From Limisphaerales bacterium (GTDB taxonomy: Bacteria; Verrucomicrobiota; Verrucomicrobiia; Limisphaerales; UBA11358), in NCBI GenBank assembly GCA_043749955.1, contig JAYVCM010000134.1, forward strand, positions 1 to 37,403: a DNA stretch of 37,403 nt, in the 5' to 3' direction. Each line of letters begins with the position of its first letter. Position 1 is the first letter of the stretch. The notes beneath the pieces were generated by a model. The model did not search any database. It had not been told where the DNA came from and saw nothing but the letters and a program-made list of their open reading frames with translations. The translations under genes and the position numbers were made by a program. Below are positions 1 to 37,403 of this stretch, one piece after another.

Positions 1-14
1 TCCTTTTAGTTGTT

Positions 15-71
15 CACCCCTCACCTGCCATAGCCGCTGTCGCTGCTCCCCTCCGAGGGGAGCGGGAGAAG
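15..71. repeat. GC-rich hairpin repeat, family I (CACCCCTCACC ... TCCCCTCCGAGGGGAG ... GGGAGAAG)
   Basis: Shares the blocks CACCCCTCACC, TCCCCTCCGAGGGGAG and GGGAGAAG with the copy at 20575..20619. Contains the stem GCTCCCC/GGGGAGC around a TCCGA loop. Confidence 0.6.
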
Positions 72-118
72 AAGCCGGCGCTCCAGTTTTCCTGTGGCAC
101 TTGGCTTTTGGGGGGATT

Positions 119-3100
119 ATGATTTCTCCCATGCGCCGCCGAAATTTTTCATCATTGCTGCGTCATGGCTTTGCCGTTGGCCTCCCGGCCTGGCTCCTTT
201 TTTTCTCCGCCCCAAAATCCGCGGCCGCGCCGGTGGATTATCTGGTGGACAAGTGGGACACGGAAGACAACCTGCCGAGCAGCACGGTGACGTCCATCGC
301 GCAGACGCCGGACGGGTATCTGTGGGTGGGAACTTACAACGGGCTGGCGCGGTTTGACGGCGCACGGTTCGAGACGTTTGATCCGGTCAACCAGCCGGCG
401 CTGGGGCAGGCGCGGGTGCAGGCGCTGTTTCTCGACGCGAACGGCACGCTCTGGATCAACACGTTTCGCGGCGGGCTGACGTCGTATCGCCAGGGCGTGT
501 TCCGCAACGAATGGCCGAACCAGCCGGCGTTTGACCTGCACACCACGCTGGTGTCGTCGTCGTCCAACCAGATCACCTTTGTCACGCAGTTCGGCGAGGT
601 GCTGCGGCGCGACCTGGCCGCGACCAATGCCGGCTGGAACATTGCTGCGCCGCCGCCGGAGACGCGGCCGATTTTTCAATGTGCCGACGGCGCGGGGCGG
701 CTGTGGTTTCTGGCGCGCGACCGGCACATTTTACAATTCAGCGATGGCCGGTTCCAGGCGCTGGCGGACGACGGCGGCTTGGCGGGCAGCCGGATTTACA
801 CGCTGGTGGCGGATGCGGCGGGAAAAATCTGGGCGGGGGCGGAAAATGAAATTGCCGTTTGGGACGGCCGGCTGTTCCTCGCCATGACGCCGACGAACGG
901 CGCGACGGACATCCAGCCGCAGTCGCTTTTTCCGACGCGGGCCGGGGCGATGTGGGTGCTGGACGGCGAACGGCTGCGCAAAATGTCGGGCCGCGAATGG
1001 GTGGCCGAAGCCGCGCCGTGGCGCGGACTGCTGGGCGCGGCCTCGGGCCGCGCGATGGGCGCGCATGAGGATCGTGACGGCGGCTGGTGGTTTAATCATT
1101 ACGGCAACGGCTTGTTTCACATCACGCCGGAGGGACAGTTTCAGCGGCTGACCTCGCGGGAAAATCTGCCGAGCGACCGCGTGGGCGCGTGGTTCCAGAG
1201 CCGTGACGGGGGCGTCTGGGCGGGGGTGGACCACGGCGGGCTGGTGCGGCTGCACGACCGGCGGTTTCAAGTGATCGGCGTGAACGAGGGCCTGCCCGTG
1301 CGCACGGCGCTGTCCGTCTGTGAAGATGCGGAGGGTGTGATTTGGATCGGCACGGCGGGCGGCGGCCTGTGCCGCTGGACCAACGGCGTGGTCACGCGTT
1401 TCGCCGTCGGCCGGAGCGTGGCGGCGGATTTTGTTTTTGCCATTGCGCCCCGGCCGGGCGGCGGCGCGTGGTTGAGCGCGGCGGCGGGCGAGGACCTTTA
1501 CCAGTTTCAAAACGGCCAGGTGCGCCGCGCGTCGTGGGAGCTGCACGGCATCAAATCCATGCTGACCGACCGGCGCGGGCGCGTGTGGATGGGGACGAAG
1601 AACGGGATCGGTTTTTCCGACGGGAACGAGCGGCATATTTTGGGGACGAATGAAAGCGGCACGTTGCCGGCGGTGCGCGCGCTGGCGGAGGCGCCGGACG
1701 GAACGGTCTGGGCGGGCGCGGACAACGGCACGCTGTTCCGCTGCGAACCGGACAAGCTGACCGCGTTCCGGCCGGAGGACGCGCTGGCGGAGCAGCCGAT
1801 TTATTCGCTGACGGCGGATGCGGAGGGCGTGGTGTGGGCGGGGACGTTTCGCGGCGGGCTGCTGCGTTTCAAAAACGGGGAATTTTCGCGCATCACGGCC
1901 AGGCAGGGCTTGCCGGCGGATATCATCAGCCAGATTTTGGAAGACCGGCGCGGGCGGCTCTGGCTCGGCACACATCAGGGAATTTATTGCGTGGCCAAAG
2001 CCGCGCTGGACGCCATCGCCGATGGACGGGTCCCGCTCGGAGCGGGACTGGATTATGTGGCCTACGGGCGGCACGACGGTCTGCCCGCGCTGGAATGTTC
2101 CGACGGCTACCAGCCCGCGAGCTGGCGCGGCGCGAATGGAAAATTATGGTTCGCCACCGTCAGCGGCGTGGTGGCCATCAACCCGGAGGAAGCCACGGCC
2201 AAGTCGCCGCCGCCGCCGGTCATCATCGAGGAACTGCGCGTGGACGGCGAGGTCGTGAAGCTGCACGAGGAGGGAGGAGGGAAGATGGAAGATGGCCCGC
2301 GTCCGCGCACTTATCCAGCCTCCAGCCTCCACCCTCCATCCGCTCCCATCCGCATCCCGCCGGGACGCAAGCAGTTGGATTTTCGTTTCACCGCGTTGAG
2401 CTTTGACGCGGGCGACAAGGCGCGGTTCCGCTACCGGGTGGACGGGCTGGACACGGACTGGGTGGACGTGGACACGCGGCGGACGTTGCAACTGCGCAAC
2501 CTCGCGCCGCGCGAATACCGGCTGCGCGTCATCGCCTGCAACAGCGAAGGCGCGTGGAATCTGGACGGCGCGGCGCTGACGTTCGCGGTCCGCCCGTTTT
2601 TTTACCAGACGCTGGCGTTCCAGATCATCGCCGGGGTGTTGCTGGTGGCGGCGGTTTCCTTCGGCGTGCGCCGCGCGGCCACGCGGAAATACCGCCGCAA
2701 GCTGGCGCGGCTGGAACAGCAGCACGCCATCGAACGCGACCGCGCCCGCATCGCCAAGGACATCCACGACGACGTCGGCGCGGGCCTGACGCAGATCACG
2801 CTGCTCACCGAACTCGCGCGCCGCGAACCGGAGCAGACGGACGCGAACCTGGAGCGCATCTCCGATTCCGCGCGCACCCTGACCAAGGCGATGGATGAAA
2901 TCGTGTGGGCCGTGGATCCGCAGCACGACACGCTCGACGGCCTGGTGGATTACATCTCGGCCTATGCGGAAGATTTTTTGCGCGTGGCCGGCATCCGCTG
3001 CCGCATGGATTTCCCGATGAACCTGCCGACGACCCGCGTGGAGGCCGAGCTGCGCTACAATCTGTTTCTCGTCGTGAAGGAGGCGTTGAACAACATCGTC

Positions 3101-3460
3101 AAGCACGCGCGCGCGGATGAAGTCTGGCTGCGGCTGCACCTCGGCCCGAAATCTTTCACGCTCGCCATCGAGGACAACGGCTGCGGGCTGGGGGCGGACG
3201 ACGAGTTGCGAGCTGGTGAGTTGAGAGTTGAGGGTTCGGACGCTCAACTCTCAACTCACGGAACTCTCAACTCCAAAGCCGCCCGCCGCCTCAACTCCGG
3301 TTCGGGCCTGGAGAACATGAAGAAACGGCTGGCCGCCGTGGGTGGCCGCTGCGAGATCCACAGCGATGCGGGACGCGGCACGCGCGTGGAGATGACCGCC
3401 GCCCTCCGCCCTGGGGCATCGCCAGTTATGGCGATTGGCGGCAGTGAAACACCGGGGTAG
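119..3460 (+). CDS. Sensor histidine kinase with periplasmic two-component-regulator propeller repeats and Y_Y_Y domain, one TM, HisKA_3-type dimerisation domain and HATPase domain
   Basis: ORF 101..3460. First ATG is at 119, followed by a hydrophobic signal/TM segment. Repeated 'DG.LW.GT..GL' propeller motifs. TM segment FQIIAGVLLVAAVSF. H-box ERDRARIAKDIHDDVGAGLT. N-box VKEALNNIVKHA. G-boxes DNGCGL ... GSGLENMKKR. Start codon is uncertain (TTG 101, ATG 119 or ATG 131). Confidence 0.9.
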   Translation: MISPMRRRNFSSLLRHGFAVGLPAWLLFFSAPKSAAAPVDYLVDKWDTEDNLPSSTVTSIAQTPDGYLWVGTYNGLARFDGARFETFDPVNQPALGQARVQALFLDANGTLWINTFRGGLTSYRQGVFRNEWPNQPAFDLHTTLVSSSSNQITFVTQFGEVLRRDLAATNAGWNIAAPPPETRPIFQCADGAGRLWFLARDRHILQFSDGRFQALADDGGLAGSRIYTLVADAAGKIWAGAENEIAVWDGRLFLAMTPTNGATDIQPQSLFPTRAGAMWVLDGERLRKMSGREWVAEAAPWRGLLGAASGRAMGAHEDRDGGWWFNHYGNGLFHITPEGQFQRLTSRENLPSDRVGAWFQSRDGGVWAGVDHGGLVRLHDRRFQVIGVNEGLPVRTALSVCEDAEGVIWIGTAGGGLCRWTNGVVTRFAVGRSVAADFVFAIAPRPGGGAWLSAAAGEDLYQFQNGQVRRASWELHGIKSMLTDRRGRVWMGTKNGIGFSDGNERHILGTNESGTLPAVRALAEAPDGTVWAGADNGTLFRCEPDKLTAFRPEDALAEQPIYSLTADAEGVVWAGTFRGGLLRFKNGEFSRITARQGLPADIISQILEDRRGRLWLGTHQGIYCVAKAALDAIADGRVPLGAGLDYVAYGRHDGLPALECSDGYQPASWRGANGKLWFATVSGVVAINPEEATAKSPPPPVIIEELRVDGEVVKLHEEGGGKMEDGPRPRTYPASSLHPPSAPIRIPPGRKQLDFRFTALSFDAGDKARFRYRVDGLDTDWVDVDTRRTLQLRNLAPREYRLRVIACNSEGAWNLDGAALTFAVRPFFYQTLAFQIIAGVLLVAAVSFGVRRAATRKYRRKLARLEQQHAIERDRARIAKDIHDDVGAGLTQITLLTELARREPEQTDANLERISDSARTLTKAMDEIVWAVDPQHDTLDGLVDYISAYAEDFLRVAGIRCRMDFPMNLPTTRVEAELRYNLFLVVKEALNNIVKHARADEVWLRLHLGPKSFTLAIEDNGCGLGADDELRAGELRVEGSDAQLSTHGTLNSKAARRLNSGSGLENMKKRLAAVGGRCEIHSDAGRGTRVEMTAALRPGASPVMAIGGSETPG
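3216..3259. repeat. Heptamer-arm hairpin (AGTTGAG/CTCAACT family), copy inside the kinase CDS
   Basis: Perfect 17-bp arms GTGAGTTGAGAGTTGAG (3216..3232) and CTCAACTCTCAACTCAC (3243..3259) around the loop GGTTCGGACG. Further CTCAACT-like units extend to about 3299. Translated in frame as GELRVEGSDAQLSTHGTLNS. Confidence 0.9.
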
Positions 3461-3543
3461 ATTGTGCGCATGACACCACTCCCTTGCCGCCAAGGATTTT
3501 TCCCTGCGCCGGACTTTCGCTGCGGTTTTTCAATTCAAGCCGC

Positions 3544-4203
3544 ATGAGCATCTCCGTTTCCATTGTCGAGGACGACGCCCGCGTGCGGGCCAGCCTGTCC
3601 CGGCTAATTGACGGCGCCGCCGGCTACAGTTGCGTGAGTAACCATTCCTCCGCCGAGGATGCGTTGCGGGAAATCCCAAAGTTCAAGCCGAACGTGGTGC
3701 TGATGGACATCAACCTGCCCGGCATCAACGGCGTGGAATGTGTGCGCCAGCTCAAGCCGCAGCTCTCCGGCACGCAGGTCATCATGCTCACCGTATATCA
3801 GAACACGGAACACATCTTCAACGCCCTCGCCGCCGGCGCCACCGGTTACATGCTCAAGCAGACGCCGCCGGACGAGTTGCTCGCCGCCATCAAGGACGTG
3901 AACGCCGGCGGTTCGCCCATGAGCGGCCACATCGCGCGGAAAATCGTGCAGTCCTTCCAGTGCGTCGCGGCGGCGTCGCCCGAATCGCAAAGCCTTTCCC
4001 CGCGCGAGGCGGAAGTGCTCGCCCTGCTGGCCAAGGGATTTCTTTACAAGGAAATTGCCGAGGCGATGAAAATCACCTACGCCACTGTGCATACCCACAT
4101 CCGCCACATCTACGAGAAGCTCCATGTGCGTTCGCGGACGGAGGCCGTGGCGAAGCATCTCGGCGAGAGCCGTCCCCGCCCTGCACTGGCCGCATCACCC
4201 TGA
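3544..4203 (+). CDS. NarL/FixJ (LuxR-type) response regulator, REC plus HTH_LuxR
   Basis: ATG at 3544 gives MSISVSIVEDD, a typical REC N-terminus. Phospho-acceptor context VVLMDINLPG. C-terminal LSPREAEVLALLAKGFLYKEIAEAMKITYATVHTHIRHIYEKLHV matches the LuxR HTH. Lies directly downstream of a HisKA_3 kinase. Confidence 0.92.
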   Translation: MSISVSIVEDDARVRASLSRLIDGAAGYSCVSNHSSAEDALREIPKFKPNVVLMDINLPGINGVECVRQLKPQLSGTQVIMLTVYQNTEHIFNALAAGATGYMLKQTPPDELLAAIKDVNAGGSPMSGHIARKIVQSFQCVAAASPESQSLSPREAEVLALLAKGFLYKEIAEAMKITYATVHTHIRHIYEKLHVRSRTEAVAKHLGESRPRPALAASP

Positions 4204-4332: not shown

Positions 4333-7300
4333 ATGAAAACCAAACTCGCTCGAATCGTTTCCCGCTCCCTCGGCCTGTGCCTGCTGGCCGGCACCACCGC
4401 CCTGCACGCCGCCGACGGCGCCTGGACGACTGATGGTGACGGCAACTGGAGCAACGTCGCCAACTGGAATTCCGGTGCCGGCCCCATCGCCGACGGCAGC
4501 GGCGGCACGGCCAGCTTCATCAACCCCATCACGGTAGGGCGCACGGTCACGAGCGACACCGCGCGCACGATTGGCAACCTCGTTTTCACGGGCTCCGCCG
4601 CGTTGAACTGGACGCTGACGAATTCCGCCGCGCTGACGTTGGCGACCGGCTCCGGCATCTCCACCATCACCGTCAGCAGCAACACCGCCACGTTCAACGC
4701 TTCCGGCGCAGGTCTGGCGGGCGCGCAAACGGTGCTGAAGAATGGCTCCGGCATTCTCTCACTCGCGTGGAACAACACTTACTCCGGCGGCACGGTGATC
4801 GGCGAAGGACGGGTGAACTTGGCGACGGTCAACTCCGGGCAGTTCGGCACTGGCAGCATTACCATCACCAACAACTCGATTCTTTCGCTGATTCGCGCCG
4901 ACACCACCGACTCATCCAGCGTGGTTGGCAGCTTGACGAATGCGCTCGTGGTTCCGGCCGGCCAGACCGCCACGCTTTTGAGCCATCCGCGCGGTTCGAT
5001 CACTGGCACGCTGACTGGCGGCGGCACTTTGAATTTCCGGGTGAACGCCACGCGCGGTGACTTGAACGGCAACTGGTCGGCTTTCGCGGGGCAGATCAAT
5101 GTGACTGCCCGCACGGGCGCTGACGATTTCCGTCTGCTCAATGGCAATGGTTTCGGCAATGCCAAATTGAATTTGGGTGCTGGCGTCAATATGCAACAGC
5201 AGTTCAATCCTCCGAACACGACCCCCTTTACCACTTTTCAGGGTATCGGTGAATTATCCGGCTCAGGCAATCTTCAAGGTCAACCGGTCAGCGGTCGTTT
5301 TGTGAACTGGGTCATCGGCGGCTTGAACACCGACTCGACTTTTTCCGGCCCGATACAGAACAACACGGGCGCTTCGGCGGTCACCAAGACCGGCACGGGC
5401 ACGCTGTCGTTGAGCGCCAACTCTCCGTTCACGGGCGGGATGCTGGTCAGCACCGGCGCGGTCTATGGCGTCACCGGCGGTTCATTTTCCAATAGTCTCA
5501 TCACCGTGGCCAGCAACGCGGCCTTTGGCGCGGCGCAGTTCGGTGTGAAAGTGAACAGCGCCGGCGGCCAGTGGACCGGCACCAACCTCGTCCTGCGTTC
5601 CGGCTCCGCGCTGGCGTTCAACTTCGGCACGGTCGCGCCGAGCACCACGGTTCCGCCGTTGAAGCTGCTGGGTGGCATCACCTCTACCAACACGGTCACG
5701 GTTAATGTGCTGGGCGGCGCGGGTTGGTTGGCCGGCACCAGTTATCCGCTCGCGAGCTACGCCAGCAACTATGTGGGCAACGGCTTTTCCGCCTTCGCTC
5801 TCGGTTCGCAGCCGCTGCGGGTTTCCGGCAGCTTGAGCAATGACACCGTGAACAGCCAGATCTGGTATGTGGTTTCCGCCGTCAACACGCCGTTGAAATG
5901 GGCGGTGGGCAACGCCAACTGGGACATCGCCACCACCGCCAACTGGCAGGACGCGGCCAATGTCTCTGCGACCTATCAAGAGCAACTCGGCCTCGGCGAC
6001 CAGGTTTTGTTCAATGACTCGGCCAGCGGTTCTTCGCCCATCACCGTCACGCTGAATACCGGCGTGACGCCGGCCAGCGTGACGTTCAGCAACGTCGCAA
6101 AAAATTACATCCTCGCGGGCACGAGCAACATTTTGGGCAGCACCAGCATCACGAAAACCGGCGCCGGCACGCTGACGATTCAGAACACGAATTCCTTCAC
6201 CGGTGCGGTGAGCGTGAACGGCGGCACGGTGAACTTTTCCAAGTTGGGCAACCTCGGCAACGGGACGGCGATCAATTTCGGCGGCGGCGCGTTGCAGTTT
6301 GCGTCCGGCAACACGGCGGACATTTCCGCGCGCACCGTGACCATCAACTCCGGCGGCGCGACGATTGACACGGCGGGCAACAACGTGGCGTTCGCCAGCC
6401 GCATCGGCAACAGCGGCGCGGGCGGTTTGACCAAGACGGGCGCAGGCACGCTGACGTTGAACACGAACAGCACTTACACCGGCAACACCACCGTCAGCCA
6501 GGGCACGCTGGCGCTCGGTGCGGTCGCGTCGCTGTCCAACAGCGCGGCGGTCACCGTCAGTGCCGGCACCACGCTGGACGCCTCGGCGACGGGCTTCGGT
6601 TTTAACTTGAACGGAACCGGCGGCCAGATGCTCGCCGGCAACGGCGCGGTGAGCGGCGCGGTCACGACGGCGGGCGGCGCAAAACTTTCACCGGCCACGA
6701 ACGGCACCATCGGCACGCTGACGTTCAACAACGATCTCACGCTGAACGGCGGCACGTTCAACCTTGACGTGAACAACGGCAGCCGCGACCTCATCGCGGT
6801 CAGCGGCTTCTTGAACTTGAACGCCACCGTGAGCGGCACGGTGCAGATCAATGCGCTCGCGTTGCTGACGCTCAACAGCACGAACAAAATTTTCCAATAC
6901 CCGGCCGGGCAGTTGACCGGCGGCGGCGTCAGCACGTTGTCGCTCGCGGTCAGCGGCGTGGCGCAGTCGGGTCGGTTGCTCACGCTCGACAATTCGGTGG
7001 ACGGTGAAATTGACCTCGTGGTTCACGCCGCGCCCGCAAACAACCTGACCTGGTTCGGCGACGGCGGTGCCAATGCCTGGGATGTCAGCAGTGCCAACTG
7101 GACGGGCGCGACCAACATTTACAGCGACGGCGACAACGCGAACTTCACTGACGCTGGCGCGGCCAATTCGCCGGTGAACATTTCGCCGTCCGCCGTGACG
7201 CCGAACTCCGTGACCTTCAACGCCACGCTGCCTTACACCATTACCGGCGCGAAAATCACCGGCCCGGCCACGGTGACCAAGACCAACTCCGGCACGGTGA

Positions 7301-11091: not shown

Positions 11092-11103
11092 TTTGAAATC
11101 ACC

Positions 11104-11139
11104 AATCCCGCGCCAGAAAACTGGCGCGGGATTTTTTTT
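11104..11139 (+). terminator. Rho-independent terminator after the giant repeat-protein gene
   Basis: Stem AATCCCGCGCCAG / CTGGCGCGGGATT (13 bp), loop AAAA, followed by a T run. Begins 13 nt after the stop codon. Confidence 0.85.
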
Positions 11140-13145: not shown

Positions 13146-13167
13146 TCTGAAGCCGCAAAAAATTCAC

Positions 13168-25455: not shown

Positions 25456-26382
25456 TCAAAACACCGTGGGCACGCCTTCGTCGAGAATTTTTATCTGCTT
25501 CGTCAGGTTTTCCGCTTCGGCGATTTCCAGGAGCCAGCGTTGCGGCTCGTCCAGCGCCTCGAACGACAGCTTGAACGTCCCGAAGTGCATCGGCACAAAA
25601 ATTTTCGCGCGCAGGTCCTTGAACGCCTGCACCGCCTGGTCCGGCCCCATGTGGACTTTGCGAAAAGTTTCCGGGTGATACGCGCCGATGGGCAGCAGCG
25701 CGATCTCCGGCGCGAGCTTGCGGCCGATTTCCTGGAAGCCGTGAAAATAGGCGCTGTCGCCCGCGTGATAAATTTTCCGGCCCTGATGTTCCAGCATGAA
25801 GCCGCCGAAGCCGCGATGCCGGTCGTGCAGCGTCCGCGCGCCCCAGTGCTTGCTCGGCGTGAACGTCACCTTCCAGTCGCCCGGCGAAAACGTTTCCCAC
25901 CATTCCAGCTCGATGACGCGCGAGAAGCCGAGATTCTGCGCGAGATCGCCGACGCCGCGCGGCATGATGCCGATTTTTGGGTTCGGCAATTTGCGCAACG
26001 TCGGCTTGTGGAAATGGTCGAAGTGCGCGTGCGTGAGCAGCACCAGGTCAATCGGCGGCAGATCTTTGATCTTCAGGCCGGCGCGCTTGATGCGTTTCAA
26101 AAGAAAAATCCAGTTGGCAAAATTCGGGTCAATCAGCACGTTCAAGTCCGTGAACTGGATGAGAAACGACGCGTGGCCGATCCAAGTGATGGCGACCTCG
26201 CCATGTTTCAATTTTGGAAAGACCGGGTGCTTCGAGCGACCGTGGCGCGGCGTGAGCCAGGCCTTCAGGATCAGTTCCTGAAAAAAAGTGCGCGGGTTGA
26301 AATGTTTCGCGGGCGTGAGCTCCTTGAACGAGCGCGGAATTTTCCGGCGCGGCGCGGGGCGTTTTGAAACCGGGCGGTTCAT
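25456..26382 (-). CDS. MBL-fold metallo-hydrolase (NAPE-PLD/UPF0173-like)
   Basis: ITWIGHASFLIQ...NVLIDPNF...DLVLLTHAHFDHF pattern. Ends 17 nt upstream of the membrane-protein start, so the two are probably in one operon. Confidence 0.85.
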   Translation of the reverse strand: MNRPVSKRPAPRRKIPRSFKELTPAKHFNPRTFFQELILKAWLTPRHGRSKHPVFPKLKHGEVAITWIGHASFLIQFTDLNVLIDPNFANWIFLLKRIKRAGLKIKDLPPIDLVLLTHAHFDHFHKPTLRKLPNPKIGIMPRGVGDLAQNLGFSRVIELEWWETFSPGDWKVTFTPSKHWGARTLHDRHRGFGGFMLEHQGRKIYHAGDSAYFHGFQEIGRKLAPEIALLPIGAYHPETFRKVHMGPDQAVQAFKDLRAKIFVPMHFGTFKLSFEALDEPQRWLLEIAEAENLTKQIKILDEGVPTVF

Positions 26383-26642
26383 GCGGGGGGACAGTTCTAC
26401 GCCGCCCGCATATCAAAAGCAACCTGCGAAAAACCGGCGGGGTCTGAAATTGGGTGCGGCCGGGAAGTTTCTTCACGGCTGGCCGGGCAGGAACGATAGC
26501 TGCTTAAAGACCCTGGCAGCCCGGGAACACGCTCAAAATGCCGGTTAAATCGCACTGGAATGGACATCCCGGCGTCCGACCCATGGAAAACAGGACAAGA
26601 ATGAATATGATTTGGGACATATCGCGTCACTCGACGGCACGC

Positions 26643-26706
26643 TGGAGTTCACGCTGGAGTTCAAGCTTTAGCTTGTCCGGCGGCACGCTCAAGCGGGAAC
26701 TCCAAC
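26643..26706. repeat. Family H repeat (GGAGTTC..CAAGCTTTAGCTTGTCCGGCGGCACGCTCAAGCGGGAACTCCAAC)
   Basis: Shares CAAGCTTTAGCTTGT, CACGCT.AAGCG.GAACTCCAAC with 33255..33318 inside fabD. Intergenic here, 58 nt upstream of the kinase start. Confidence 0.75.
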
Positions 26707-30929: not shown

Positions 30930-30998
30930 GTTGAGAGTTTTATGAGTTGAGAGTTGAGGGTTCGGACTCTCAACTCTCAACTCAAATAACTCTCAACT
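30930..30998. repeat. Heptamer-arm hairpin (AGTTGAG/CTCAACT family) between convergent genes; plausible bidirectional terminator or RNA-stability element
   Basis: Perfect 15-bp arms GAGTTGAGAGTTGAG (30944..30958) and CTCAACTCTCAACTC (30969..30983) around GGTTCGGACT, plus partial units on both flanks. Confidence 0.85.
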
Positions 30999-31928
30999 GG
31001 CTCTGGCTTTCAGCCGCGCGGATGAAATTTCCGGTGGATCTCCCGCAGCCGGCTGCCCGTGACGTGCGTGTAAATCTCCGTCGTGCCGATGCTCGCATGG
31101 CCGAGCAGTTCCTGGATCGCGCAAGTCCGCGCCGTGCTCCAGCAGATGCGTGGCAAAACTGTGCCGCAACATGTGCGGCGTGATGTTGCGCCCGATGCCT
31201 GTGCGGCGGACGCGGTTCTTGATGTGCAGCCAGAGCGTCACCGCCGCGAACGGCGTTCCGCGCTTCGTCAAAAAAACATTCGCCGGAGATTTCGGCGTGA
31301 CGAGTTTCGGACGGCCGGTCTCGATGTAACGGTTCAACGCCGCGACCGCTTTTTTTCCCACCGGCACCACGCGCTCTTTGTTGCCCTTGCCGATGACGTT
31401 GATGAAGCCCGCGTCCAGATGCAACTGCTCCAGCCGGATGTTTTTCAGCTCGGACAATCGCAGGCCCGAGGCGTAGGCCAGTTCCAGAATCGCCTGGTCG
31501 CATAAATTTTCCCTGGTCTCCGGCAATTCCGGCGCGAGCAGTTTTTTTATTTCGTCGTTCGACAGCGCCTTGGGCAGACGTTTCCAGCGGCGCGGCAGCG
31601 AAAGATTTTCCGCGAGGTTCGCCGGCAGCAGTTTTTCGTTCTCGGCGAATTTGTAGAACGACCGCAGCGCGGCGATTTCCAGATACACGCTTTCGCCGCT
31701 CAAGCGCAGGGTGGATCCCCTGGGTGCGTCGGCGGGCGGGCGGGCGCGCTCGTGTTGCAGGAACGCCATGAGATGTTTTAGCTCGACCGATTTCCAGTCC
31801 GTGAGAGTTTGCGTCGCCGCCCACGCGGTGAATTTGCCGAGCAGAGCGGCGTAGGTCCTGGCCGTGTTGTCCGCCTGCCCGCGCTCGTGGCGCAGGCATT
31901 GCAGAAAATCTTCCACGAGGTTTTGCAT
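30993..31928 (-). CDS. xerD: XerD/XerC-family tyrosine recombinase, apparently frameshifted before the catalytic His/Tyr block (possible pseudogene)
   Basis: ATG at 31928 gives [30 protein letters not shown], the N-terminal SAM-like domain. ...[21 protein letters not shown] then loses the frame. The family sequence [35 protein letters not shown] continues in another frame and ends at 31010. Confidence 0.8.
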
Positions 31929-32017
31929 CACGGCAGTCCGGCGGCGGGCAAATTTTTTGTGGTGGCAGCCATGCGGCAATGTTGGCAGCGCGCCGGACGG
32001 ATGAGAATAAAAATCAT

Positions 32018-32202
32018 GGTAGGGCGGCGCTGCCGCGCCGCCCAAATTTCCCCGCCAGAACAAGCGCAGCGATGTTCTGGCCTGCGGGATTGACGCGCGC
32101 TGGTTCCGTCCAGCCACGCTGCGCGGGCTGACGGGGGAGAAATGGGCAGAGCGGCAGCTCTGCCCTGCCAAAATTGGTAGGGCGGCGCTGCCGCGCCGCC
32201 CC
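32018..32202. repeat. REP cluster (BIME-like) downstream of the RAYT gene
   Basis: Palindromes GGGCGGCGC-TGCC-GCGCCGCCC (32021..32043 and 32179..32201) and GGGCAGAGC-GGCA-GCTCTGCCC (32144..32165). Confidence 0.85.
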
Positions 32203-32206
32203 AATT

Positions 32207-32686
32207 TCAATCCGCCGACCAACGGATTTCATGCACGCGTCCGAAATAAGGCCAGTCCTCCGGTCGCTCCGCCAGCTTGTGCCGGACGGGATTGTCCCGG
32301 ACGTATTGCCGTTTCTGCGCGTAACTTTCGCCATCCCGCAGGCGATGATGAAAACCGCCGTCTTGAAAAATTCCCGTGTCCGGCTGCGACTTGGCCAGGC
32401 GGTCTTTCCAAAAGGCGATCCCGCGTTCGATGGTGAATTTCCAATCCCGCGGCGCGCAGAACAGATGCAGATGATCGGGCAGCAGCAGATAATCACTGAC
32501 CAGCCAGGCGGTGGCCTTGTGTTCCCAAATCTCATGCAGCGCCCGCTGGACGGATGCCTGCGCCAGCCAGCGGTCCCGTTTCGCGGTGCAGACGGTGAGA
32601 AAAACCCAGTTCGGACCGCCGGCGGAAACGTGAACGCCCTTCGCCGGCGTGTGTCGTCCCGGTTCGTGGAAAGGGATTTCGGACAT
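32207..32686 (-). CDS. REP-associated tyrosine transposase (RAYT; IS200/IS605 TnpA-like Y1 HUH enzyme)
   Basis: HUH motif LLLPDHLHLFCAP. C-terminal catalytic Tyr context RQYVRDNPVRHKLAERPEDWPY. 159 aa. Flanked on both sides by REP palindromes. Confidence 0.85.
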   Translation of the reverse strand: MSEIPFHEPGRHTPAKGVHVSAGGPNWVFLTVCTAKRDRWLAQASVQRALHEIWEHKATAWLVSDYLLLPDHLHLFCAPRDWKFTIERGIAFWKDRLAKSQPDTGIFQDGGFHHRLRDGESYAQKRQYVRDNPVRHKLAERPEDWPYFGRVHEIRWSAD

Positions 32687-32762
32687 GGCGAAATTTTTAG
32701 CGGAAGGCGGACGAAGGGAAAAGTTTTTTCGTCACGCGTTCAAAGCGCGTGACGGGAGAAAT

Positions 32763-32951
32763 GGGCGGAGCGGCAGCTCTGCCCTACCAAATGTTGGTGG
32801 TAGGGCGGCGCTGCCGCGCCGCCCAAACTTTCCCGCCGGAACCAGCGCAGCGAAGTTCCGGCCTTCGGGTTTGACGCGGACTGATTCCGTCAGCATCGCT
32901 TCGCTGGCTGACGGGGGAGAATGGGGCAGAGCGGCAGCTCTGCCCTGCCAA
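32763..32951. repeat. REP cluster (BIME-like) upstream of the RAYT gene
   Basis: GGGCGGAGCGGCAGCTCTGCCCT (32763..32785), GGTAGGGCGGCGCTGCCGCGCCGCCC (32799..32824) and GGGCAGAGCGGCAGCTCTGCCC (32925..32946). Confidence 0.85.
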
Positions 32952-33014
32952 TCTTTGCTTGCGCCAGAAATTTCCACTTCGCGTCTTTGCGCGTTTGTTG
33001 TTAAAATTTTCCGC

Positions 33015-34067
33015 ATGAGCAAAACCGCACTCCTGTTTGCCGGCCAAGGCGCGCAAGTCATCGGCATGGGCAAAGACCTCGCCGAAAAATTTCCATCCGC
33101 CCAGGCGTGGTTCGACCGCGCCAATGCCGCGCTCGGCTACGACCTCGCCGGCATCTGTTTCCATGGCCCGGAAGCCGACCTGACGAAAACCGAAAACGCC
33201 CAGCCGGGAATTTTCCTTGTGAGCTGGGTCTGCTTTGAGTTGCTCAAGGAGCGCGTTGGAGTTGGAGCTCAAGCTTTAGCTTGTTCCGCCGCAGACACGC
33301 TAAAGCGTGAACTCCAACTGAAATTTGACGCCACCGCCGGTTTGTCGCTCGGCGAATTCACGGCGCTCACGGCGGCGGGTGCGATGAGTTTTGAGGACGG
33401 ACTGCGCGTCGTGCGCCAGCGCGGAAAATTCATGCAGGAAGCGTGCGACGTGACCAAAGGCGGCATGGCCGCGATCATCGGTCTCGACGAAACGCTGACG
33501 CGCGAAGTTTGTGCCGAAGCCGGAGTGGTGCTGGCGAATTTGAATTGCCCCGGCCAGCTTGTCATTTCCGGCGAGGCGGAAAAAATTGTGAAGGCGTGCG
33601 AACTCGCCAAGGCCAGGGGTGCGAAACGCGCGCTGCCGTTGTCGGTGGCGGGCGCGTATCACTCACCGCTCATGGCCAGCGCGCAGCCGAAGCTCGCGGC
33701 GGAACTGGCGAAAACAAAAATTTCTTTCCCTCTCGTGCCGGTGATTTCAAATGTGACGGCGCAGGCTCATGTAGTGGCACAGGCTTCCAGCCTGTGTGTT
33801 GCTGATGGGGCGGTTGCGGCGACAGGAACTCACAGGCAAGATGCCTGTGCCACTATTTCCGCGCGGCTCGTTGAGCAAGTTTGTGCGTCAGTGCGCTGGG
33901 AAGAATCCATGCGTGCATTGCTGGCGCAGGGTTTTACGCGGTTCATCGAACTCGGCCCCGGCACGGCGTTGAGCGGTTTCATGAAGCGCATTGATAAGAC
34001 CGCGCAGATGCTGAACGTGTCGGATGCGGCGAGCTTGGAGGCGACGGCAAAAACTTTGAACGGTTAG
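33015..34067 (+). CDS. fabD: Malonyl-CoA:ACP transacylase, carrying two in-frame repeat insertions
   Basis: MSKTALLFAGQGAQVIGMG, nucleophile elbow GLSLGEF, RGKFMQEA, MAAIIGL, LNCPGQLVISG, AKRALPLSVAGAYHSPLM. At 350 aa it is about 40 aa longer than typical FabD. The 122-aa upstream extension in the track reads through REPs. Confidence 0.93.
   Translation: MSKTALLFAGQGAQVIGMGKDLAEKFPSAQAWFDRANAALGYDLAGICFHGPEADLTKTENAQPGIFLVSWVCFELLKERVGVGAQALACSAADTLKRELQLKFDATAGLSLGEFTALTAAGAMSFEDGLRVVRQRGKFMQEACDVTKGGMAAIIGLDETLTREVCAEAGVVLANLNCPGQLVISGEAEKIVKACELAKARGAKRALPLSVAGAYHSPLMASAQPKLAAELAKTKISFPLVPVISNVTAQAHVVAQASSLCVADGAVAATGTHRQDACATISARLVEQVCASVRWEESMRALLAQGFTRFIELGPGTALSGFMKRIDKTAQMLNVSDAASLEATAKTLNG
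33255..33318. repeat. Family H repeat inside fabD
   Basis: GTTGGAGTTGGAGCTCAAGCTTTAGCTTGTTCCGCCGCAGACACGCTAAAGCGTGAACTCCAAC. Termini GTTGGAGTT/AACTCCAAC are inverted. Matches 26643..26706. Translated as VGVGAQALACSAADTLKRELQL. Confidence 0.8.
33771..33855. repeat. Family G palindromic element inside fabD
   Basis: GTAGTGGCACAGGCTTCCAGCCTGTGTG ... CTCACAGGCAAGATGCCTGTGCCACTA. Both ends match the reverse complement of the prmC copy. Translated as VVAQASSLCVADGAVAATGTHRQDACAT. Confidence 0.85.
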
Positions 34068-34140
34068 ACCGGCCGGAAAGCCCAGGCCCAAAGATGATTT
34101 TCCGTTTTGATTTTTTCCCTGTGCAGCGTAGTTTGCGGGC

Positions 34141-34467
34141 ATGAAAAAAATCCTTTCCCGCCTCGCCGCCGTGTCCGCCGCCATTTTTCTCGCCGGCTGC
34201 GGGGACAGCACTAGTTCCACCGCCCCCAGCACCAACGCGGCGGACATCAACAACCCGCTCGTGAACGCCAAGCGGACGGCGGACAAGACGTCCGAGGCGG
34301 CGGCGCTCAACTCGGCCGTGCAGTTGTTCAATGTGCAGGAGGGGCGCTACCCGAAAGATCTCCCCGAACTGACGCCGAAATATATCCGCAGCCTTCCCGC
34401 CGCGCCGCTCGGCTACAAATTTTCCTACGACGCGAAGAAAGGCGAGGCCAGCGTGGTGCGAGAATAA
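34141..34467 (+). CDS. Small lipoprotein with a GspG/pseudopilin-like C-terminal segment
   Basis: Signal peptide plus lipobox MKKILSRLAAVSAAIFLAGCG. NSAVQLFNVQEGRYPKDLPELTPKYIRSLP resembles the body of type II secretion pseudopilins. Confidence 0.65.
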   Translation: MKKILSRLAAVSAAIFLAGCGDSTSSTAPSTNAADINNPLVNAKRTADKTSEAAALNSAVQLFNVQEGRYPKDLPELTPKYIRSLPAAPLGYKFSYDAKKGEASVVRE

Positions 34468-34508
34468 ATCTTTTAGCAGCGTTTTCAATTGAACGAGCGC
34501 TGTCGAAA

Positions 34509-34635
34509 TCGCGAAGCGTCTGGACTGCGTCCGCTTTTGCGACGCTTTCGTGCGGGCGAAAGCTCACAAACTTTCAACCGTCCCGGTGCGCATCAAAAGC
34601 GGTGCTGAAGCATCCGCAGTCCAGACGCTTCGCGA
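34509..34635. repeat. Long structured inverted-repeat element between convergent genes
   Basis: 21-bp perfect arms TCGCGAAGCGTCTGGACTGCG (34509..34529) and CGCAGTCCAGACGCTTCGCGA (34615..34635). Inner arms CCGCTTTTG/CAAAAGCGG. Central hairpin GCTTTCG-TGCGGG-CGAAAGC. Confidence 0.7.
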
Positions 34636-34677
34636 CCACTGATTGCTTGCGTCAGTAGCGGATTTGAAAAGCCCGTT

Positions 34678-36975
34678 TCAGAACGCCAGGTATTTCAGCA
34701 CCTGCACCTCGCGCTTGAAGACCAGCGTGATCGCGTTGTCTTTGAACCACACGTCAAACGGGCACCGGTCACGGGCGTCGTAATACTCCCACATGATGCG
34801 GCCATTTTTTGGATTGATGCGCGCGATGCGAAAGTAAGCCGGCTTCTGGATCATCAGGTCGTTCTGCGCCTCCTCGTCCGTCGGGTTCGGGTCATTGGAC
34901 TGGACGGTGTAAATAAATTTCCCCGACAAGTAGGAAATGAAACCACCGGGCTTGATGCTCCACAAAGTTTTGCCGGTCTTGGGATTCACCTTCATCAGGA
35001 TGTCGTCGGTCTGCTTGTTGATGTCAATCTGGCGCGAATACTTGATGTCATCGGGATTGCCGCTCGTCGTGTTGACATACAGGCTGCCCTGGTCGTCAAA
35101 AAACAATCCGACCACGCCGACGGACGGCAGACGCCAGCGCGCGTTGCCGGTGTTCAACTCAAACGCGCTCAACACGGCCTGGTCAAAAACGTAAAGCGTG
35201 TCGCCGTGTTCCACGCACGGGCCTTCGCCGAACTTGGCTTCTTCGCGGTAAAATCCGCCGCCGCCCGACACGCTGTAGGTCAGCCCGGCCTGCCAGATTT
35301 TTTTGTTGGTCTTGTCGAGGACGATGACCGTCTTGCCCGCCGCGATGACGTTCACGGTCTTCAACGGGAACAACTGCGGCGGCCCGACCACTTCGCCTTT
35401 CCAGTCCGGGGTGCTGGCGGAATCGGGAATATGCACCGTGACTTGATAGCGGCTCTCGTTTTCCGTGACCGTGTCGCCGCCGCTGTTGTGCTGCATCTCG
35501 TTGAGGAGCTCGTTGGCGATGTCGGCGGTCTTGGCCGCGTTCACTTCGCCTTCGAGCGCGGATTTTTTCGGCGGCGCCTTCGCGGCCGAGCGGGTGACGA
35601 AGCGTTCCTCCAGCAGCTTGGCGGAGAATTGCACGAAACCATTCTTCGCCGGGACGAGCTGGAAATTTTCCGCGCCAACGGGAATGGCCGTGGAATTTTT
35701 TGCGCGCGGGCGCTGCGGATCGTCTTTGAGCGCGGCTTCAAGCTGCTGCTCGTGCATGGCGTTGGCGAGCAGCGCGGGCAGGGCGATCTTCGCAGGCAGT
35801 TTTAAATTCTGCGCCTGCGCGGCAACCTTGTTCGGATCCAGCGGCTGTCCGCCGGTGGTTCCGGACAGTGACAATCCGCCGCCGCCGGAATTATCGGCCA
35901 CGAAGAGCGTCTTGGCGCCGGGCGGACGAAATTGTTCCACGCGCGAATCGCCGGTGGCCAGGCTGACGTGCGTGACGGAGCCATCGCCGAGCATGAGCAG
36001 TTCACCGTCGCCCTCGACCAGCGCGCTGCCGTTTTCCGGCAGCGTGATTTCGCGGACGACTTTGCCGGTGACCCAGTCGTAATGCGTGAGCTTGTCGCCC
36101 TTGCCCACCCAGACATCCTGGCCGGAGACGCGCAGCAGCAGTTCGCTTTGGAAGGCGATCCGCGCATCTTTCTCCAGGCTCTCGGCGCTGCGCCGAAGAA
36201 CATAGCCGCCCTCGGCCGCCGCCCTGGCGATGGCTTCACCTTCCACCTTCACCACTGCGGCGACCTCTTCCTTCGAGACGAGCTCCTGCGACCAGACTGG
36301 TTTTTTGGTTTTCAGGTCGTAACGCGCCAGCGTGCCGCCGTGCAGAAAAATCATCTGGTCCTTGCCGACGAGCTGCGATTTGCCGGAGTAGGCGCGGGCG
36401 TTGTCCTCGAAGCGCACGGCAAAATACGGATGCGGCACGGAACCGAACCAGCCATACCAGACCCAGACGCCGAACAGCAAAACGATGACGCCCACGATGG
36501 ACGCAAAGATCAAACCCGTCTTGCGCCAGAACTGCCGCTCGATTTCAAATTTCTGCCCGGCATAAACCGGCGCGGCGATGCCCTTCAAATCCGCCTTGTT
36601 CTTGCACAGCGGCGAACAGAAAAATCCGAACAGCGCCAGGCACTGCGGGCAGATGGGTTTGCCGCAGACGGCGCATTTCTCTGTGTTCAGCACGCCGCGA
36701 TGTTTCTGGCAATACTTGGAGGTTGGCGCGGCTTCCGGCGGCGGCTCCGCCGGTTTTTCCGCGTGTGAAATTTTAAGGCGCGGCGCGGCGCCGGGCGGTG
36801 GCGGCGGCGGGGGCGCGGCGGGGAATTGTTCCTTGATTTCCGCCTGCACGAGCTGGTTGACATACTCCGACGAATCCAGCCCGCAGGTCGGGCACACGAA
36901 GCGCACCGGGCTTTGCGCCATTTCCGGCGTGAGGTCGAAGGCGTATTTCGCGCCGCAGGAGCATTGGATTTTCAT
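34678..36975 (-). CDS. Zinc-ribbon / single-TM / PQQ-like beta-propeller repeat protein
   Basis: N-terminal CxC...CPxC ribbon (MKIQCSCGAKYAFDL...FVCPTCG). Second Cys cluster CQKH...CAVCGKPICPQC. TM segment LIFASIVGVIVLLFGVWVWYGWF. Then repeated beta-propeller blades of the type G.L.A.D..TGK..W. Confidence 0.75.
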   Translation of the reverse strand: MKIQCSCGAKYAFDLTPEMAQSPVRFVCPTCGLDSSEYVNQLVQAEIKEQFPAAPPPPPPPGAAPRLKISHAEKPAEPPPEAAPTSKYCQKHRGVLNTEKCAVCGKPICPQCLALFGFFCSPLCKNKADLKGIAAPVYAGQKFEIERQFWRKTGLIFASIVGVIVLLFGVWVWYGWFGSVPHPYFAVRFEDNARAYSGKSQLVGKDQMIFLHGGTLARYDLKTKKPVWSQELVSKEEVAAVVKVEGEAIARAAAEGGYVLRRSAESLEKDARIAFQSELLLRVSGQDVWVGKGDKLTHYDWVTGKVVREITLPENGSALVEGDGELLMLGDGSVTHVSLATGDSRVEQFRPPGAKTLFVADNSGGGGLSLSGTTGGQPLDPNKVAAQAQNLKLPAKIALPALLANAMHEQQLEAALKDDPQRPRAKNSTAIPVGAENFQLVPAKNGFVQFSAKLLEERFVTRSAAKAPPKKSALEGEVNAAKTADIANELLNEMQHNSGGDTVTENESRYQVTVHIPDSASTPDWKGEVVGPPQLFPLKTVNVIAAGKTVIVLDKTNKKIWQAGLTYSVSGGGGFYREEAKFGEGPCVEHGDTLYVFDQAVLSAFELNTGNARWRLPSVGVVGLFFDDQGSLYVNTTSGNPDDIKYSRQIDINKQTDDILMKVNPKTGKTLWSIKPGGFISYLSGKFIYTVQSNDPNPTDEEAQNDLMIQKPAYFRIARINPKNGRIMWEYYDARDRCPFDVWFKDNAITLVFKREVQVLKYLAF

Positions 36976-36979
36976 GGCG

Positions 36980-37403
36980 TCAGGGCTTGGGATTCAATAG
37001 CACGACGCCCGGCGCGCCGACGAGCGAAAACGTCAGTTGCGCCTTGCCCGCCTGCACGCTGCCGTCGTTCATCAGAAAATTCCCGCCGTATTTGTGATGG
37101 TTGTTGCCCGGTGATTTTCCGCTCGCTGAAAAAACCATTTCGCCCGCGCGCTTCGGCTCGGTGTCCACCTGCCGGTCGGACAGCAAGACCGTTTGCGGCC
37201 CGTCCGGTGCCGACGGGAGTCGGCGGCCCATGTAGTAGGCGTAGCTGATTTTGTGTTGGCGCAACGGTTCGCCGGAGGGAATCTGCGAATCGCGCCCGCC
37301 GGGGCAGATGAAGATGGTCGTGTCCGCCGAGTATTTCGGGACGAGCACGTCCAGCACTTCTTCCGATGTGACGGCGTTGGTGTTCTGCGGCAGCGCGCCC
37401 TTG
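36980..37403 (-). CDS. Prepilin-type H-X9-DG family protein, C-terminal part (5' end lies outside the window)
   Basis: HHKYGGNFLMNDGSV matches H-X9-DG. ISYAYYMG is typical of this family. The reading frame stays open to the window edge. Stop is 4 nt before the next gene start. Confidence 0.75.
   Translation of the reverse strand, partial: KGALPQNTNAVTSEEVLDVLVPKYSADTTIFICPGGRDSQIPSGEPLRQHKISYAYYMGRRLPSAPDGPQTVLLSDRQVDTEPKRAGEMVFSASGKSPGNNHHKYGGNFLMNDGSVQAGKAQLTFSLVGAPGVVLLNPKP

Follow-up and report, generated by a model that had tools for sequence, protein, structure and literature searches.

Palindromic repeats in the window

We analysed a 37,403-nt stretch of DNA (61% G+C; hereafter the window) from contig JAYVCM010000134.1 of a soil or freshwater Limisphaerales bacterium. 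It carries short palindromic repeats, here called families A and E to L, that lie between genes and also in frame inside conserved genes, including fabD, prmC, an HDAC-like deacetylase gene and a histidine kinase gene (HK1). It also carries a candidate gene for a REP-associated tyrosine transposase (RAYT), bracketed by repetitive extragenic palindromes (REPs). Gene identities were assigned by Pfam and NCBIfam profile searches. Homologs of the FabD, PrmC and deacetylase proteins are labelled Verrucomicrobiae, Verrucomicrobiota or Limisphaerales bacterium, and the closest relatives of the window are metagenome-assembled genomes (MAGs) labelled Limisphaerales or Verrucomicrobiae. We consider it probable, at roughly 0.8, that several small palindromic repeat families have colonized this Verrucomicrobiota genome and that their in-frame genic copies are mostly neutral or slightly deleterious passengers.

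An earlier note on this DNA, made from the sequence alone, had delimited the hairpins by eye. To assess them, each interval was folded as single-stranded DNA and compared with 200 dinucleotide shuffles. Most intervals fold far beyond the shuffles, with z values from −2.5 to −11.3 for the hairpins confirmed in this way (A, E, F, G, H, J, L, three of the four I intervals and unit 2 of K), but positions 19120–19147 do not fold and positions 15–71 hold only an 8-bp core. A blind count of stems with 12 bp or more and a loop no longer than 60 nt gave 25 for the window, against 7.1 ± 2.4 in Markov-1 random sequences, and the strongest of them were the elements named in the earlier note plus a few ordinary terminators. 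The earlier observation is real for the most part. The proposed 'at least nine families' include singletons (E and L). Nor are the families all unrelated, as had been supposed: G and J have the GTAG-REP design in common, and A, E, F and H have arms built of tandem 7–8-nt units. Recurrence elsewhere was likewise borne out in part. Copies were found for G (at least 106 loci), H, I and the heptamer units of A and F, whereas J was found in the window only, K as two adjacent units, and E and L once each; no copies of J, K, L or E were present in 645 kb of related MAG loci or in a 6.6-kb extension of the contig. When the whole window was compared with Rfam at E ≤ 1, only a tRNA-Lys passed, the hairpins appearing as sub-threshold, miRNA-like noise.

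In-frame copies in conserved genes

The fabD gene (33015–34067, plus strand) encodes 350 aa from its start at 33015, compared with about 305–315 aa in solved FabDs. A family H unit at 33255–33318 (plus strand; z = −4.9) encodes approximately VGVGAQALACSAADTLKRELQ. A doublet of inverted G-type REPs (a REPIN) at 33771–33855 (plus strand; z = −8.6) encodes VVAQASSLCVADGAVAATGTHRQDACAT and adds 28 aa. Both are in frame, and alignment with 3im8 and other structures leaves residues of about 83–103 and 251–280 unmatched. In an AlphaFold2 model the FabD core is predicted confidently (predicted template modelling score 0.75), and the inserts at residues 85–100 (H) and 255–274 (G) have a predicted local distance difference test score below 50. 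Among orthologs with 78–91% identity, both inserts are polymorphic for presence and absence in all four combinations: neither in P0120 (309 aa), H only in P0021 and P0026, G only in P0014 and P0019, and both in the window. At the first site, P0049, P0077 and P0118 carry a third, unrelated hairpin with GTCCAAA-heptamer arms.

Assembly chimeras, which the earlier note had named as a possible refutation, are a negligible explanation for these insertions. Small assembly differences do exist, since the window differs from a public 95.9-kb metagenome contig (ena:ERZ27315166:k141_9491425; L001) by two single-nucleotide polymorphisms, at 25540 and 26080, and one 2-nt indel. However, five contigs assembled independently from five samples all encode one and the same 350-aa FabD, both inserts included, which excludes a chimera, and dozens of JGI, ENA and NCBI orthologs carry the same inserts with every frame intact.

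The G REPIN in prmC (gene 18550–19470, minus strand; REPIN 18864–18933, minus strand, in frame; z = −9.9) consists of two inverted GTAGTGGCACAGGC-N5-GCCTGTG REPs and encodes VVAQASSLCVSKNELTGKMPVPL. It adds 23–24 aa (about 23 relative to 4dzr) and is missing from 8 of 22 aligned orthologs. In both fabD and prmC the filled sites have 9–15 nt of the empty-site sequence replaced (72 nt for 12 nt in prmC), and no target-site duplication was seen at these sites. The junction between prmC and aroA also varies: it is filled by the E hairpin in the window, measures 5 nt in L237, and in L236 holds a G REPIN, from which prmC takes its last codons, 'VAQASRL*'.

A second element in prmC had been counted as an insertion of family A, a claim that does not survive. 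The tract at 19117–19150 (minus strand), (CTCAACT)x3.5 or (AGTTGAG)x3.5 on the opposite strand, is one-armed, does not fold and encodes LSTLNSQLST in frame in the PrmC linker. Nearly all orthologs have STLNxQPST at this place, and the length is within 1–2 residues of solved PrmCs. The unit differs as a whole between orthologs: the window has (CTCAACT)3, L236 has (ATCAACC)3 and the array of L237 is mixed. The tract is thus an array that evolves in concert at a conserved position, and not a lineage-specific insert. Heptamer tracts of L018 and L058, considered as further prmC orthologs, turned out not to be in prmC orthologs.

In the HDAC-like deacetylase gene (20126–21037, minus strand), a family I hairpin at 20575–20619 (minus strand, in frame; z = −2.5) encodes ..SPSPLGGERAGVRG.., and 'SPSPLGGERAGVRG' is extra relative to 5zmp. 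The modal ortholog has 287 aa and no insert, compared with 303 aa here; a minority of orthologs carry I, some as inverted dimers. In HK1 (101–3460, plus strand; Reg_prop / Y_Y_Y / HisKA_3 / HATPase_c), a 44-nt family A hairpin with two extra CTCAACT heptamers at 3216–3290 (plus strand) encodes ..GELRVEGSDAQLSTHGTLNS.. at residues of about 1039–1064. This segment falls in the ATP-lid loop of HATPase_c, between the DNG and GSGL boxes; alignments to DesK leave query residues of about 167–192 unmatched, and the nearest homologs, P0361 (76% identity) and P0363 (71%), are 18 aa shorter at the insert. A second histidine kinase gene (HK2; 26764–28872, plus strand; CHASE8 / HAMP / PAS) ends in a cluster of A units at 28703–28872 (plus strand), which provides its stop codon and the ~52 codons before it. 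The cluster follows the end of HATPase_c (residue 665 of 721), and the HK2 stop overlaps the start (ATGA) of the hybrid kinase gene HK3 (28869–30923, plus strand). The A units of HK2 are thus a C-terminal read-through tail and not an internal insert.

Of the in-frame copies proposed earlier, those of I in the deacetylase, G and H in fabD, G in prmC and A in HK1 stand; A in HK2 is a terminal tail, and A in prmC is not an insert. Alignment with orthologs, the check suggested for them, revealed empty sites in close orthologs (75–91% identity) for fabD, prmC and the deacetylase, and shorter homologs for HK1. Sites are also reused by different families, as at the first fabD site (H or the GTCCAAA hairpin) and the prmC–aroA junction. 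Together, these results demonstrate that the inserts are copies of dispersed palindromic units that are lineage-specific, polymorphic and frame-preserving, sit in loops or at termini and lack target duplications. The proposed likeness to the in-frame palindromic insertions of Rickettsia in conserved genes is upheld by the empty sites in orthologs and by the absence of the inserts from solved homologs in the Protein Data Bank.

The inserted peptides look conserved among carriers (for example, VVAQASSLCV..THRQDACAT) and the prmC heptamer tract is conserved in position, which would fit ancestral functional loops lost in some lineages. Such an origin is highly improbable: in related genomes the same nucleotide units are met in genes without relation to one another (dnaE, mutS, topA, uvrD and others) and between genes, the DNA of the segments is palindromic, no solved homolog has them, and their distribution is patchy, with all four combinations in fabD and different families at one site. 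Every intragenic copy examined keeps the frame and avoids stop codons, as expected if the inserts are translated. The predicted host–insert junction peptides are AQAHVVAQASSLCV, EAVADASPSPLGGER and GELRVEGSDAQLSTH, with AHVVAQASSL in FabD. This preservation of frame also speaks against removal of the inserts before the mature protein forms, by RNA processing or in an intein-like manner, which we regard as very unlikely. RNases could in principle act on the very stable hairpins of the inserts, but cleavage of an mRNA hairpin would destroy the message and not rejoin it, and units of 45–87 nt are far below the size of known self-splicing introns or inteins. Furthermore, proteins decorated with Rickettsia palindromic element 1 (RPE-1) are reported to be expressed in vivo, according to work cited in PMC3733652.

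GTAG-headed repeats and the RAYT locus

Family J consists of REPs with the layout T-GGTAG-GGCGGCGC-TGCC-GCGCCGCC, in which a 9-bp palindrome comes after the GTAG head, in 7–8 copies that all lie within the window. The RAYT-like gene (32207–32686, minus strand; 159 aa) is flanked on the left (32017–32201) by a 155-nt J REPIN at 32017–32171 and a single J REP at 32175–32201, and on the right (32763–32951) by an inverted J REP at 32763–32790 and a second 155-nt J REPIN at 32798–32951, giving the order REPIN, REP, gene, REP, REPIN. The J REPs at this locus fold with z = −4.5 and −6.7, and the two single REPs bracket the gene as inverted 28-nt arms that are 89% complementary. The encoded protein has the HUH motif 'HLHL' (in 'LLPDHLHLF') and the tyrosine motif 'YVRDNPV', and it matches the NCBIfam profile NF047646 (REP_Tyr_transpos) at E = 1.1e-17 and 64 bits over profile positions 12–145 of 146. 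One more J-type REPIN, two inverted GTAG-headed REPs (TGGTAGGGCGGCGC...), lies in intergenic DNA at 13266–13343 (z = −7.2). The earlier assignment of this REPIN and of the repeats at the RAYT locus to one family is confirmed, and on sequence grounds the J copies and the putative RAYT gene are a classic REPtron.

The G-type REP reads GTAG-TGG-CACAGGCN-NNN-NGCCTGTG (GTAGTGGCACAGGC-N5-GCCTGTG), and two inverted copies surround a spacer of 11–79 nt among the loci listed, where the loop-closing pair covaries (A-T, T-A and G-C). The GTAG head is absent from H, I, A, E, F, K and L. Away from the REPtron, the window carries two G copies and one J REPIN in 37 kb, and the next 6.6 kb hold none.

We suggest that G is a second RAYT-type REPIN family, because G-type REPINs flank RAYT-like segments in L093, a Verrucomicrobiae MAG locus (CAVTWB010000012.1 320001–328000, minus strand, nt ~560–3660). 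There, dnaE contains two complete RAYT-like segments, with HUH motifs NHVHVLV and NHVHLIV, tyrosine motifs YIQDNP and YIQENP and a Pfam Y1_Tnp match each. Each segment is flanked on both sides by G-type REPINs, and whole REPtrons thus lie in the DnaE reading frame and contain no stop codon. One apparent frameshift near nt 2500 splits this dnaE into two open reading frames (ORFs).

Family G in related genomes

A scan of one genome per GTDB species found G at no fewer than 106 loci, which among the matches listed belonged overwhelmingly to Verrucomicrobiota, Limisphaerales or Verrucomicrobiae MAGs; about 30 of the listed loci were contigs of the single MAG JAYVQV01. Exact single G-type REPs, mostly singletons and not doublets (for example, L008, L024, L034, L041, L052, L060, L078 and L079), were also present in MAGs labelled Acidobacteriota, Desulfobaccales, Planctomycetota and Betaproteobacteria and in a Microcoleus isolate. 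Either G-type REPs extend beyond Verrucomicrobiota or some of these contigs are mis-binned.

We next scored a doublet as genic when a reading frame ran through it and stayed open for 50 codons or more to either side, using random 75-nt segments from the same loci as a control. Among the loci listed, 41 of 71 G doublets (58%) were in open frames, compared with 75% of random positions; 24 of the 71 were in JAYVQV01, and in that MAG the count was 12 of 23. Over half of the sampled doublets were therefore genic, in conflict with the extragenic location that defines REPINs. Of the spanning frames tested, 18 of 20 were conserved genes recognized by Pfam. The hosts include dnaE, mutS (two MAGs, same site), hrpA, uvrD, topA, smc and a class-I aminoacyl-tRNA synthetase gene, as well as acrB, ackA, lutB and genes for an ABC ATPase, glycoside hydrolases, an amine oxidase and pyridoxal phosphate enzymes. 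G is read in two modes, VVAQAS(S/R)LC.. and SGTG(I/V/F)xPVS.., and the third frame reads G-TAG and is closed. Measured from GTAG to CTAC, the doublets favour lengths of 3n+1 regardless of location (42 of 71; p = 1e-5), with a mode of 70 nt.

These numbers allow a bolder proposal in two parts: that the REPINs here are adapted to genic life and not merely filtered by selection, and that the heptamer-arm hairpins discussed below form a widespread class of small structured repeat, not described before, that has a formation mechanism or a recognition protein of its own. The first part is drawn from the genic fraction of 58% against 75% at random, the lengths biased modulo 3 and the whole REPIN–RAYT–REPIN units in dnaE of one MAG. 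Taken jointly, the two parts are speculative, and we would sooner expect them to fail than to hold. The weak exclusion of REPINs from genes looks new.

Heptamer-arm hairpins

Families A, E and F share one design with the outer arms of H: tandem units of 7–8 nt make up the arms, around a G+C-rich centre. The A hairpins fold with z = −9.0 (3216–3259), −5.2 (28703–28790) and −11.3 (30930–30998); the last of these, in which a 4-nt bulge separates the outer from the inner stem, lies between the convergent HK3 and xerD-like genes. The E hairpin at 18454–18546, which fills the prmC–aroA junction, has tandem 8-mer arms (TGGATGGT / ATCCAACA) and folds (z = −2.8) as the TGGAT-arm hairpin proposed earlier, but it is a single copy, and its status as a family is unproven. 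Between divergent genes, the F hairpin at 21038–21122 (z = −4.0) has tandem-heptamer arms of the GATTTAC type; its unit recurs as one tract in L104, and the complete hairpin was found only in the window. Family H is a doublet of 5-bp hairpins (CAAGC-TTTA-GCTTG and CACGC-TAAA-GCGTG) within GTTGGAG/CTCCAAC arms. It recurs in at least seven related loci, and its second window copy lies in intergenic DNA at 26641–26706 (z = −4.9), upstream of the called HK2 start at 26764.

In the JGI metagenome collection, the A arms alone (GTTGAGAGTTGAG-N3-30-CTCAACTCTCAAC) are found on at least 120 contigs. Among the matches listed, G+C ranges from 0.36 to 0.75, the copies have an outer stem, a bulge of about 4 nt and an inner stem as at 30930–30998, and nearly every loop is different; 12 of 122 lie in read-through frames, and most are located between tandem or convergent ORFs at a median distance of about 18–21 nt. 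L160 has two A hairpins, and a search of the DNA between them for a transposase gene met only short, unremarkable ORFs. We also considered A as an integron attC site and rejected it: the arm order is GTTGAGA...TCTCAAC and not RYYYAAC...GTTRRRY, and GTTGAGA does not fit GTTRRRY.

The differing loops point to another possible origin, in which the hairpins with heptamer or octamer arms (A, E and F, the GTCCAAA element and the outer arms of H) formed and were homogenized in place by slippage combined with template switching or hairpin-templated repair; the conserved arms could then be recognized by a host or element protein. Besides the identical arms found across contigs of such different G+C, the exact window core of A (AGTTGAGRGTTCGGACKCTCAACT with loop GGTTCGGAC) had no match in the JGI metagenome collection. 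Period-7 tandem arrays were strongly over-represented in L006–L111 (645 kb, mostly Verrucomicrobiota), with 59 arrays where 2–5 were expected, at least 25 different units (for example, AAAGCGG, AATCGGC, ACCCCAG, AAAGTCC and AACCTTC) and 29% paired as inverted arrays; the window itself has seven heptamer arrays. The change of unit in concert in the prmC array (CTCAACT, ATCAACC or mixed) agrees with this origin as well. However, the three window copies of A have the loop GGTTCGGAC and the bulge layout in common, which argues for copying of whole units within the genome, the A insert of HK1 is missing from the nearest homologs, and no mechanism is known by which the same heptamer would arise independently in many taxa. 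We hold formation in place to be a serious alternative, though with the odds against it. Literature searches returned no description of inverted heptamer-array hairpins, and as a class they look new.

The positions of the hairpins raise a further alternative, that they are mainly functional host elements (terminators or attenuators, 3′-end stabilizers or binding sites) whose genic copies are by-products. The short distance of the metagenome A hairpins from tandem or convergent ORFs matches the distribution of REPs reported in PMC3733652, and in the window A (30930–30998) and L lie between convergent genes and E between co-directional genes. Yet the hairpins are without T-runs, unlike ordinary terminators in the window such as that at 11104–11133. 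Hairpin presence at the prmC–aroA junction varies among close relatives, no Rfam family matches, and two of the hairpins, F and the H copy at 26641, are in 5′ regions of divergent type. A primarily functional role is accordingly rather unlikely.

Families I, K and L and neighbouring genes

Family I is a C/G-rich hairpin, headed by CACCCCTCACC and tailed by GGGAGAAG, that recurs in related loci. The copy at 15–71, intergenic and upstream of HK1, has the CACCCCTCACC head, an 8-bp core hairpin and the GGGAGAAG tail (z = −1.0 for the whole stretch). Of the intervals assigned to I earlier, two resemble it only loosely: an intergenic hairpin with a GGGGGAGAAG tail at 23949–23981 (z = −2.8) and a nested G/C-rich hairpin at 11228–11289, between the genes for PATR giant proteins (z = −5.8).

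Family K comprises two adjacent, intergenic units of about 190 nt, 13506–13702 and 13754–13944 (13506–13944 in total), with terminal inverted repeats of about 50 nt (27-nt arms, 85% complementary). Unit 2 folds with z = −4.4 and unit 1 is degenerate (z = −1.3). From its sequence K looks like a miniature transposable element with inverted repeats (MITE), as had been proposed, in its terminal inverted repeats, its length within 70–300 bp and its non-coding nature, but it departs from one in that neither dispersed copies nor target-site duplications were evident for the two units; no partner transposase was found. Family L is a 127-nt hairpin with 40-nt arms at 34509–34635, between convergent genes (z = −8.4), and as a singleton its status as a family is unproven.

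The remaining genes of the window are, on the plus strand, a LuxR-type response regulator (3484–4203), PATR giant proteins 1 (4333–11091) and 2 (11322–13145), a DUF423 protein (22268–22618) and a small lipoprotein (34141–34467); and, on the minus strand, two metallo-beta-lactamase fold proteins (13946–14722 and 25456–26382), a tRNA-Lys (14959–15034), an Mrr-like nuclease (15988–17169), aroA (17182–18446), an ORF6N protein (19467–20111), a PilT-like ATPase (22599–23813), an xerD-like gene (approximately 31008–31928) and a PQQ-repeat protein (34678–36975). The PATR giant proteins (2,252 and 607 aa) have a common 175-nt 3′ end that is 81% identical (10923–11097 and 12977–13151). Their genes (4333–13145) also share many internal degenerate repeats, and together with the common end these make up most 'direct repeat' families detected in the window. 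The tRNA-Lys adjoins a stretch of low G+C (47.7% at 16–17 kb versus ~61% overall) with the Mrr-like restriction endonuclease gene, and 14959–17169 looks like a small horizontally acquired island.

In relatives (L113 and L115) the gene order is xerD, Dabb, fabD, fabG, acpP, fabF. At 31950–34700 of the window, xerD and fabD are separated by the RAYT REPtron in place of the Dabb gene, and fabD is followed by the small lipoprotein gene, the L hairpin and the convergent PQQ-repeat gene where relatives have fabG, acpP and fabF. At ~31119, in the xerD-like gene, the window is 2 nt short of L001 (GGATCACGCGC to GGATCGCGC); the frame shifts where the integrase-domain match stops, and the ORF continues into the A hairpin at 30993. 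This difference could be a strain variant or an assembly difference. Mechanical ORFs start far upstream of the true starts in prmC (416 versus 306 aa; 18550–19800), fabD (472 versus 350 aa; 32649–34067) and xerD (409 versus ~306 aa; 30993–32222), and the fabD and xerD extensions traverse open frames of J repeats.

Discussion

The observations above allow us to propose how the repeats came to lie in genes. J and G would be copied by a HUH tyrosine transposase acting on hairpins in single-stranded DNA, as in REP/RAYT systems, and the elements would insert without target duplication. A genic copy would survive only if the net length change is a multiple of three, if its frame avoids stops (for G, the G-TAG frame would be closed) and if it falls in a tolerant surface loop or at a protein terminus; selection would remove frame-breaking or structurally harmful copies. 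Inserts would add 15–30 residues of probably disordered loop to FabD, PrmC, the deacetylase and HK1 and a tail to HK2, and would come and go among close relatives, with different families reusing the permissive sites. H and I are further small palindromes to which no enzyme is assigned.

Several points weigh against this account. A pure passenger model does not explain the 3n+1 length bias of G, and the 58% of G doublets in genes exceed what random insertion plus a frame filter would predict, which we estimate at no more than ~35%. On the side of the enzyme, the RAYT score of 64 bits is below the NCBIfam equivalog cut-off of 80, the protein has no Pfam match at E = 1e-3, and no RAYT cognate to G was found in the window. 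The filled sites of fabD and prmC are not clean additions, 9–15 nt having been replaced, so that post-insertion events or another mechanism must be assumed. Last, A, E and F combine conserved arms with a different loop each time, which does not look like copy-and-paste of whole elements.

New peptide loops have few natural ways into conserved enzymes, and small palindromic repeats that insert in frame are one of them. Their presence or absence across hundreds of metagenomic FabD, PrmC and deacetylase orthologs is a natural experiment on which loops tolerate 15–30 extra residues, and the same polymorphism bears on how fast inserts are gained and lost. For annotation, the repeats create conserved-looking motifs in these MAGs (VVAQASSLCV, SGTGILPVSS, SPSPLGGERAGVRG and LNSQLST) and artificially lengthen ORFs at both ends; in the window, prmC, fabD and xerD are extended upstream in this way, and HK2 gains its C-terminal tail. 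Genes called automatically in such genomes will tend to come out too long.

Comparison with known systems

The cyanobacterial short tandemly repeated repetitive (STRR) sequences are tandem heptanucleotide repeats. The arrays found here resemble them in being short, built of 7-nt units, mostly intergenic and many per genome, with period 7 over-represented, and differ in that ~29% form inverted pairs, giving hairpins with a unique central loop, in having many units and in lying in frame in some cases. Bacterial MITEs inserted in frame include Nezha and the cyanobacterial small dispersed repeats (listed in PMC3733652 and PMC3184786). Family K shares with bacterial MITEs its terminal inverted repeats of ~50 nt, its length of ~190 nt and its non-coding nature, and differs from them in consisting of two adjacent units only. 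Heptanucleotide repeats have also been described outside the STRR sequences, as TAACTGA in Beggiatoaceae (PMC4679880) and GGGGATT in Xanthomonas and Nostoc (PMC4692102).

The in-frame inserts resemble the Rickettsia palindromic elements, in that palindromes lie in frame in housekeeping genes, form loops compatible with the fold and vary between relatives. The Rickettsia elements, however, belong to obligate intracellular Alphaproteobacteria and not to free-living, high-GC Verrucomicrobiota, and their sequences are different; RPE-1 is longer (~100–150 bp), and RPE-4 and RPE-6 are of the CGTC class. We know of no dedicated transposase for the CGTC class. Rickettsia palindromic elements were reportedly described by Ogata et al. 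in 2000 and 2002 and by Claverie and Ogata in 2003. With a host in Verrucomicrobiota, the likeness is one of analogy and not of membership.

REP/REPIN–RAYT systems are said to go back to work by Nunvar in 2010, Bertels and Rainey in 2011 and Ton-Hoang in 2012. The REPtron of the window agrees with them in a single RAYT bracketed by inverted REPs, the GTAG head, doublets that form long hairpins, variable spacers and the lack of target duplication. It differs in that classical REPINs are extragenic by definition and many here are genic, and in the RAYT score below the equivalog cut-off. Such systems were treated more recently by Bertels 2017 (PMC5581495).

The nearest precedent is Opitutus terrae. 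The earlier note knew of no description for this lineage, which fails at the phylum level: Di Nocera, De Gregorio & Rocco 2013 (BMC Genomics 14:522; PMC3733652) sort REPs into GTAG and CGTC superfamilies and report several coexisting GTAG families in this verrucomicrobium, together with the highest number of intragenic in-frame REPs. The same authors place REPs inside genes in several species, with most REPs intergenic, and describe dimers that encode 20–30 residues, ORFs with two inserts and a prominence of replication and repair genes (hrpA and uvrA). Our search of the literature on intragenic REPs found nothing newer than that paper. Both cases belong to the same phylum and combine coexisting GTAG families with in-frame singles or dimers of 20–30 residues, some genes with two inserts and repair or replication hosts (here dnaE, mutS, uvrD, topA and hrpA). 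Family G likewise forms frame-preserving dimers of about 20–30 aa inside ORFs of more than 120 aa (23–24 in prmC, 28 in fabD). At the level of encoded peptides, on which this comparison is made, 'GTGVPPV' of GTAG-19 resembles 'SGTG(V/I)(S/L)PVS' or 'SGTGVSPVS' of the G frame; the stem of G is CACAGGC, compared with the CACGGGC that GTGVPPV implies. The differences are the order (Opitutales versus Limisphaerales-like MAGs), the presence here of families H, I, A, E, F, K and L, which are not GTAG REPs, and the location, most REPs of the Opitutus paper being intergenic whereas more than half of the sampled G doublets are intragenic. The in-frame REP/REPIN and other palindromic inserts of this Limisphaerales-like genome are therefore a new example of the phenomenon published for Opitutus terrae.

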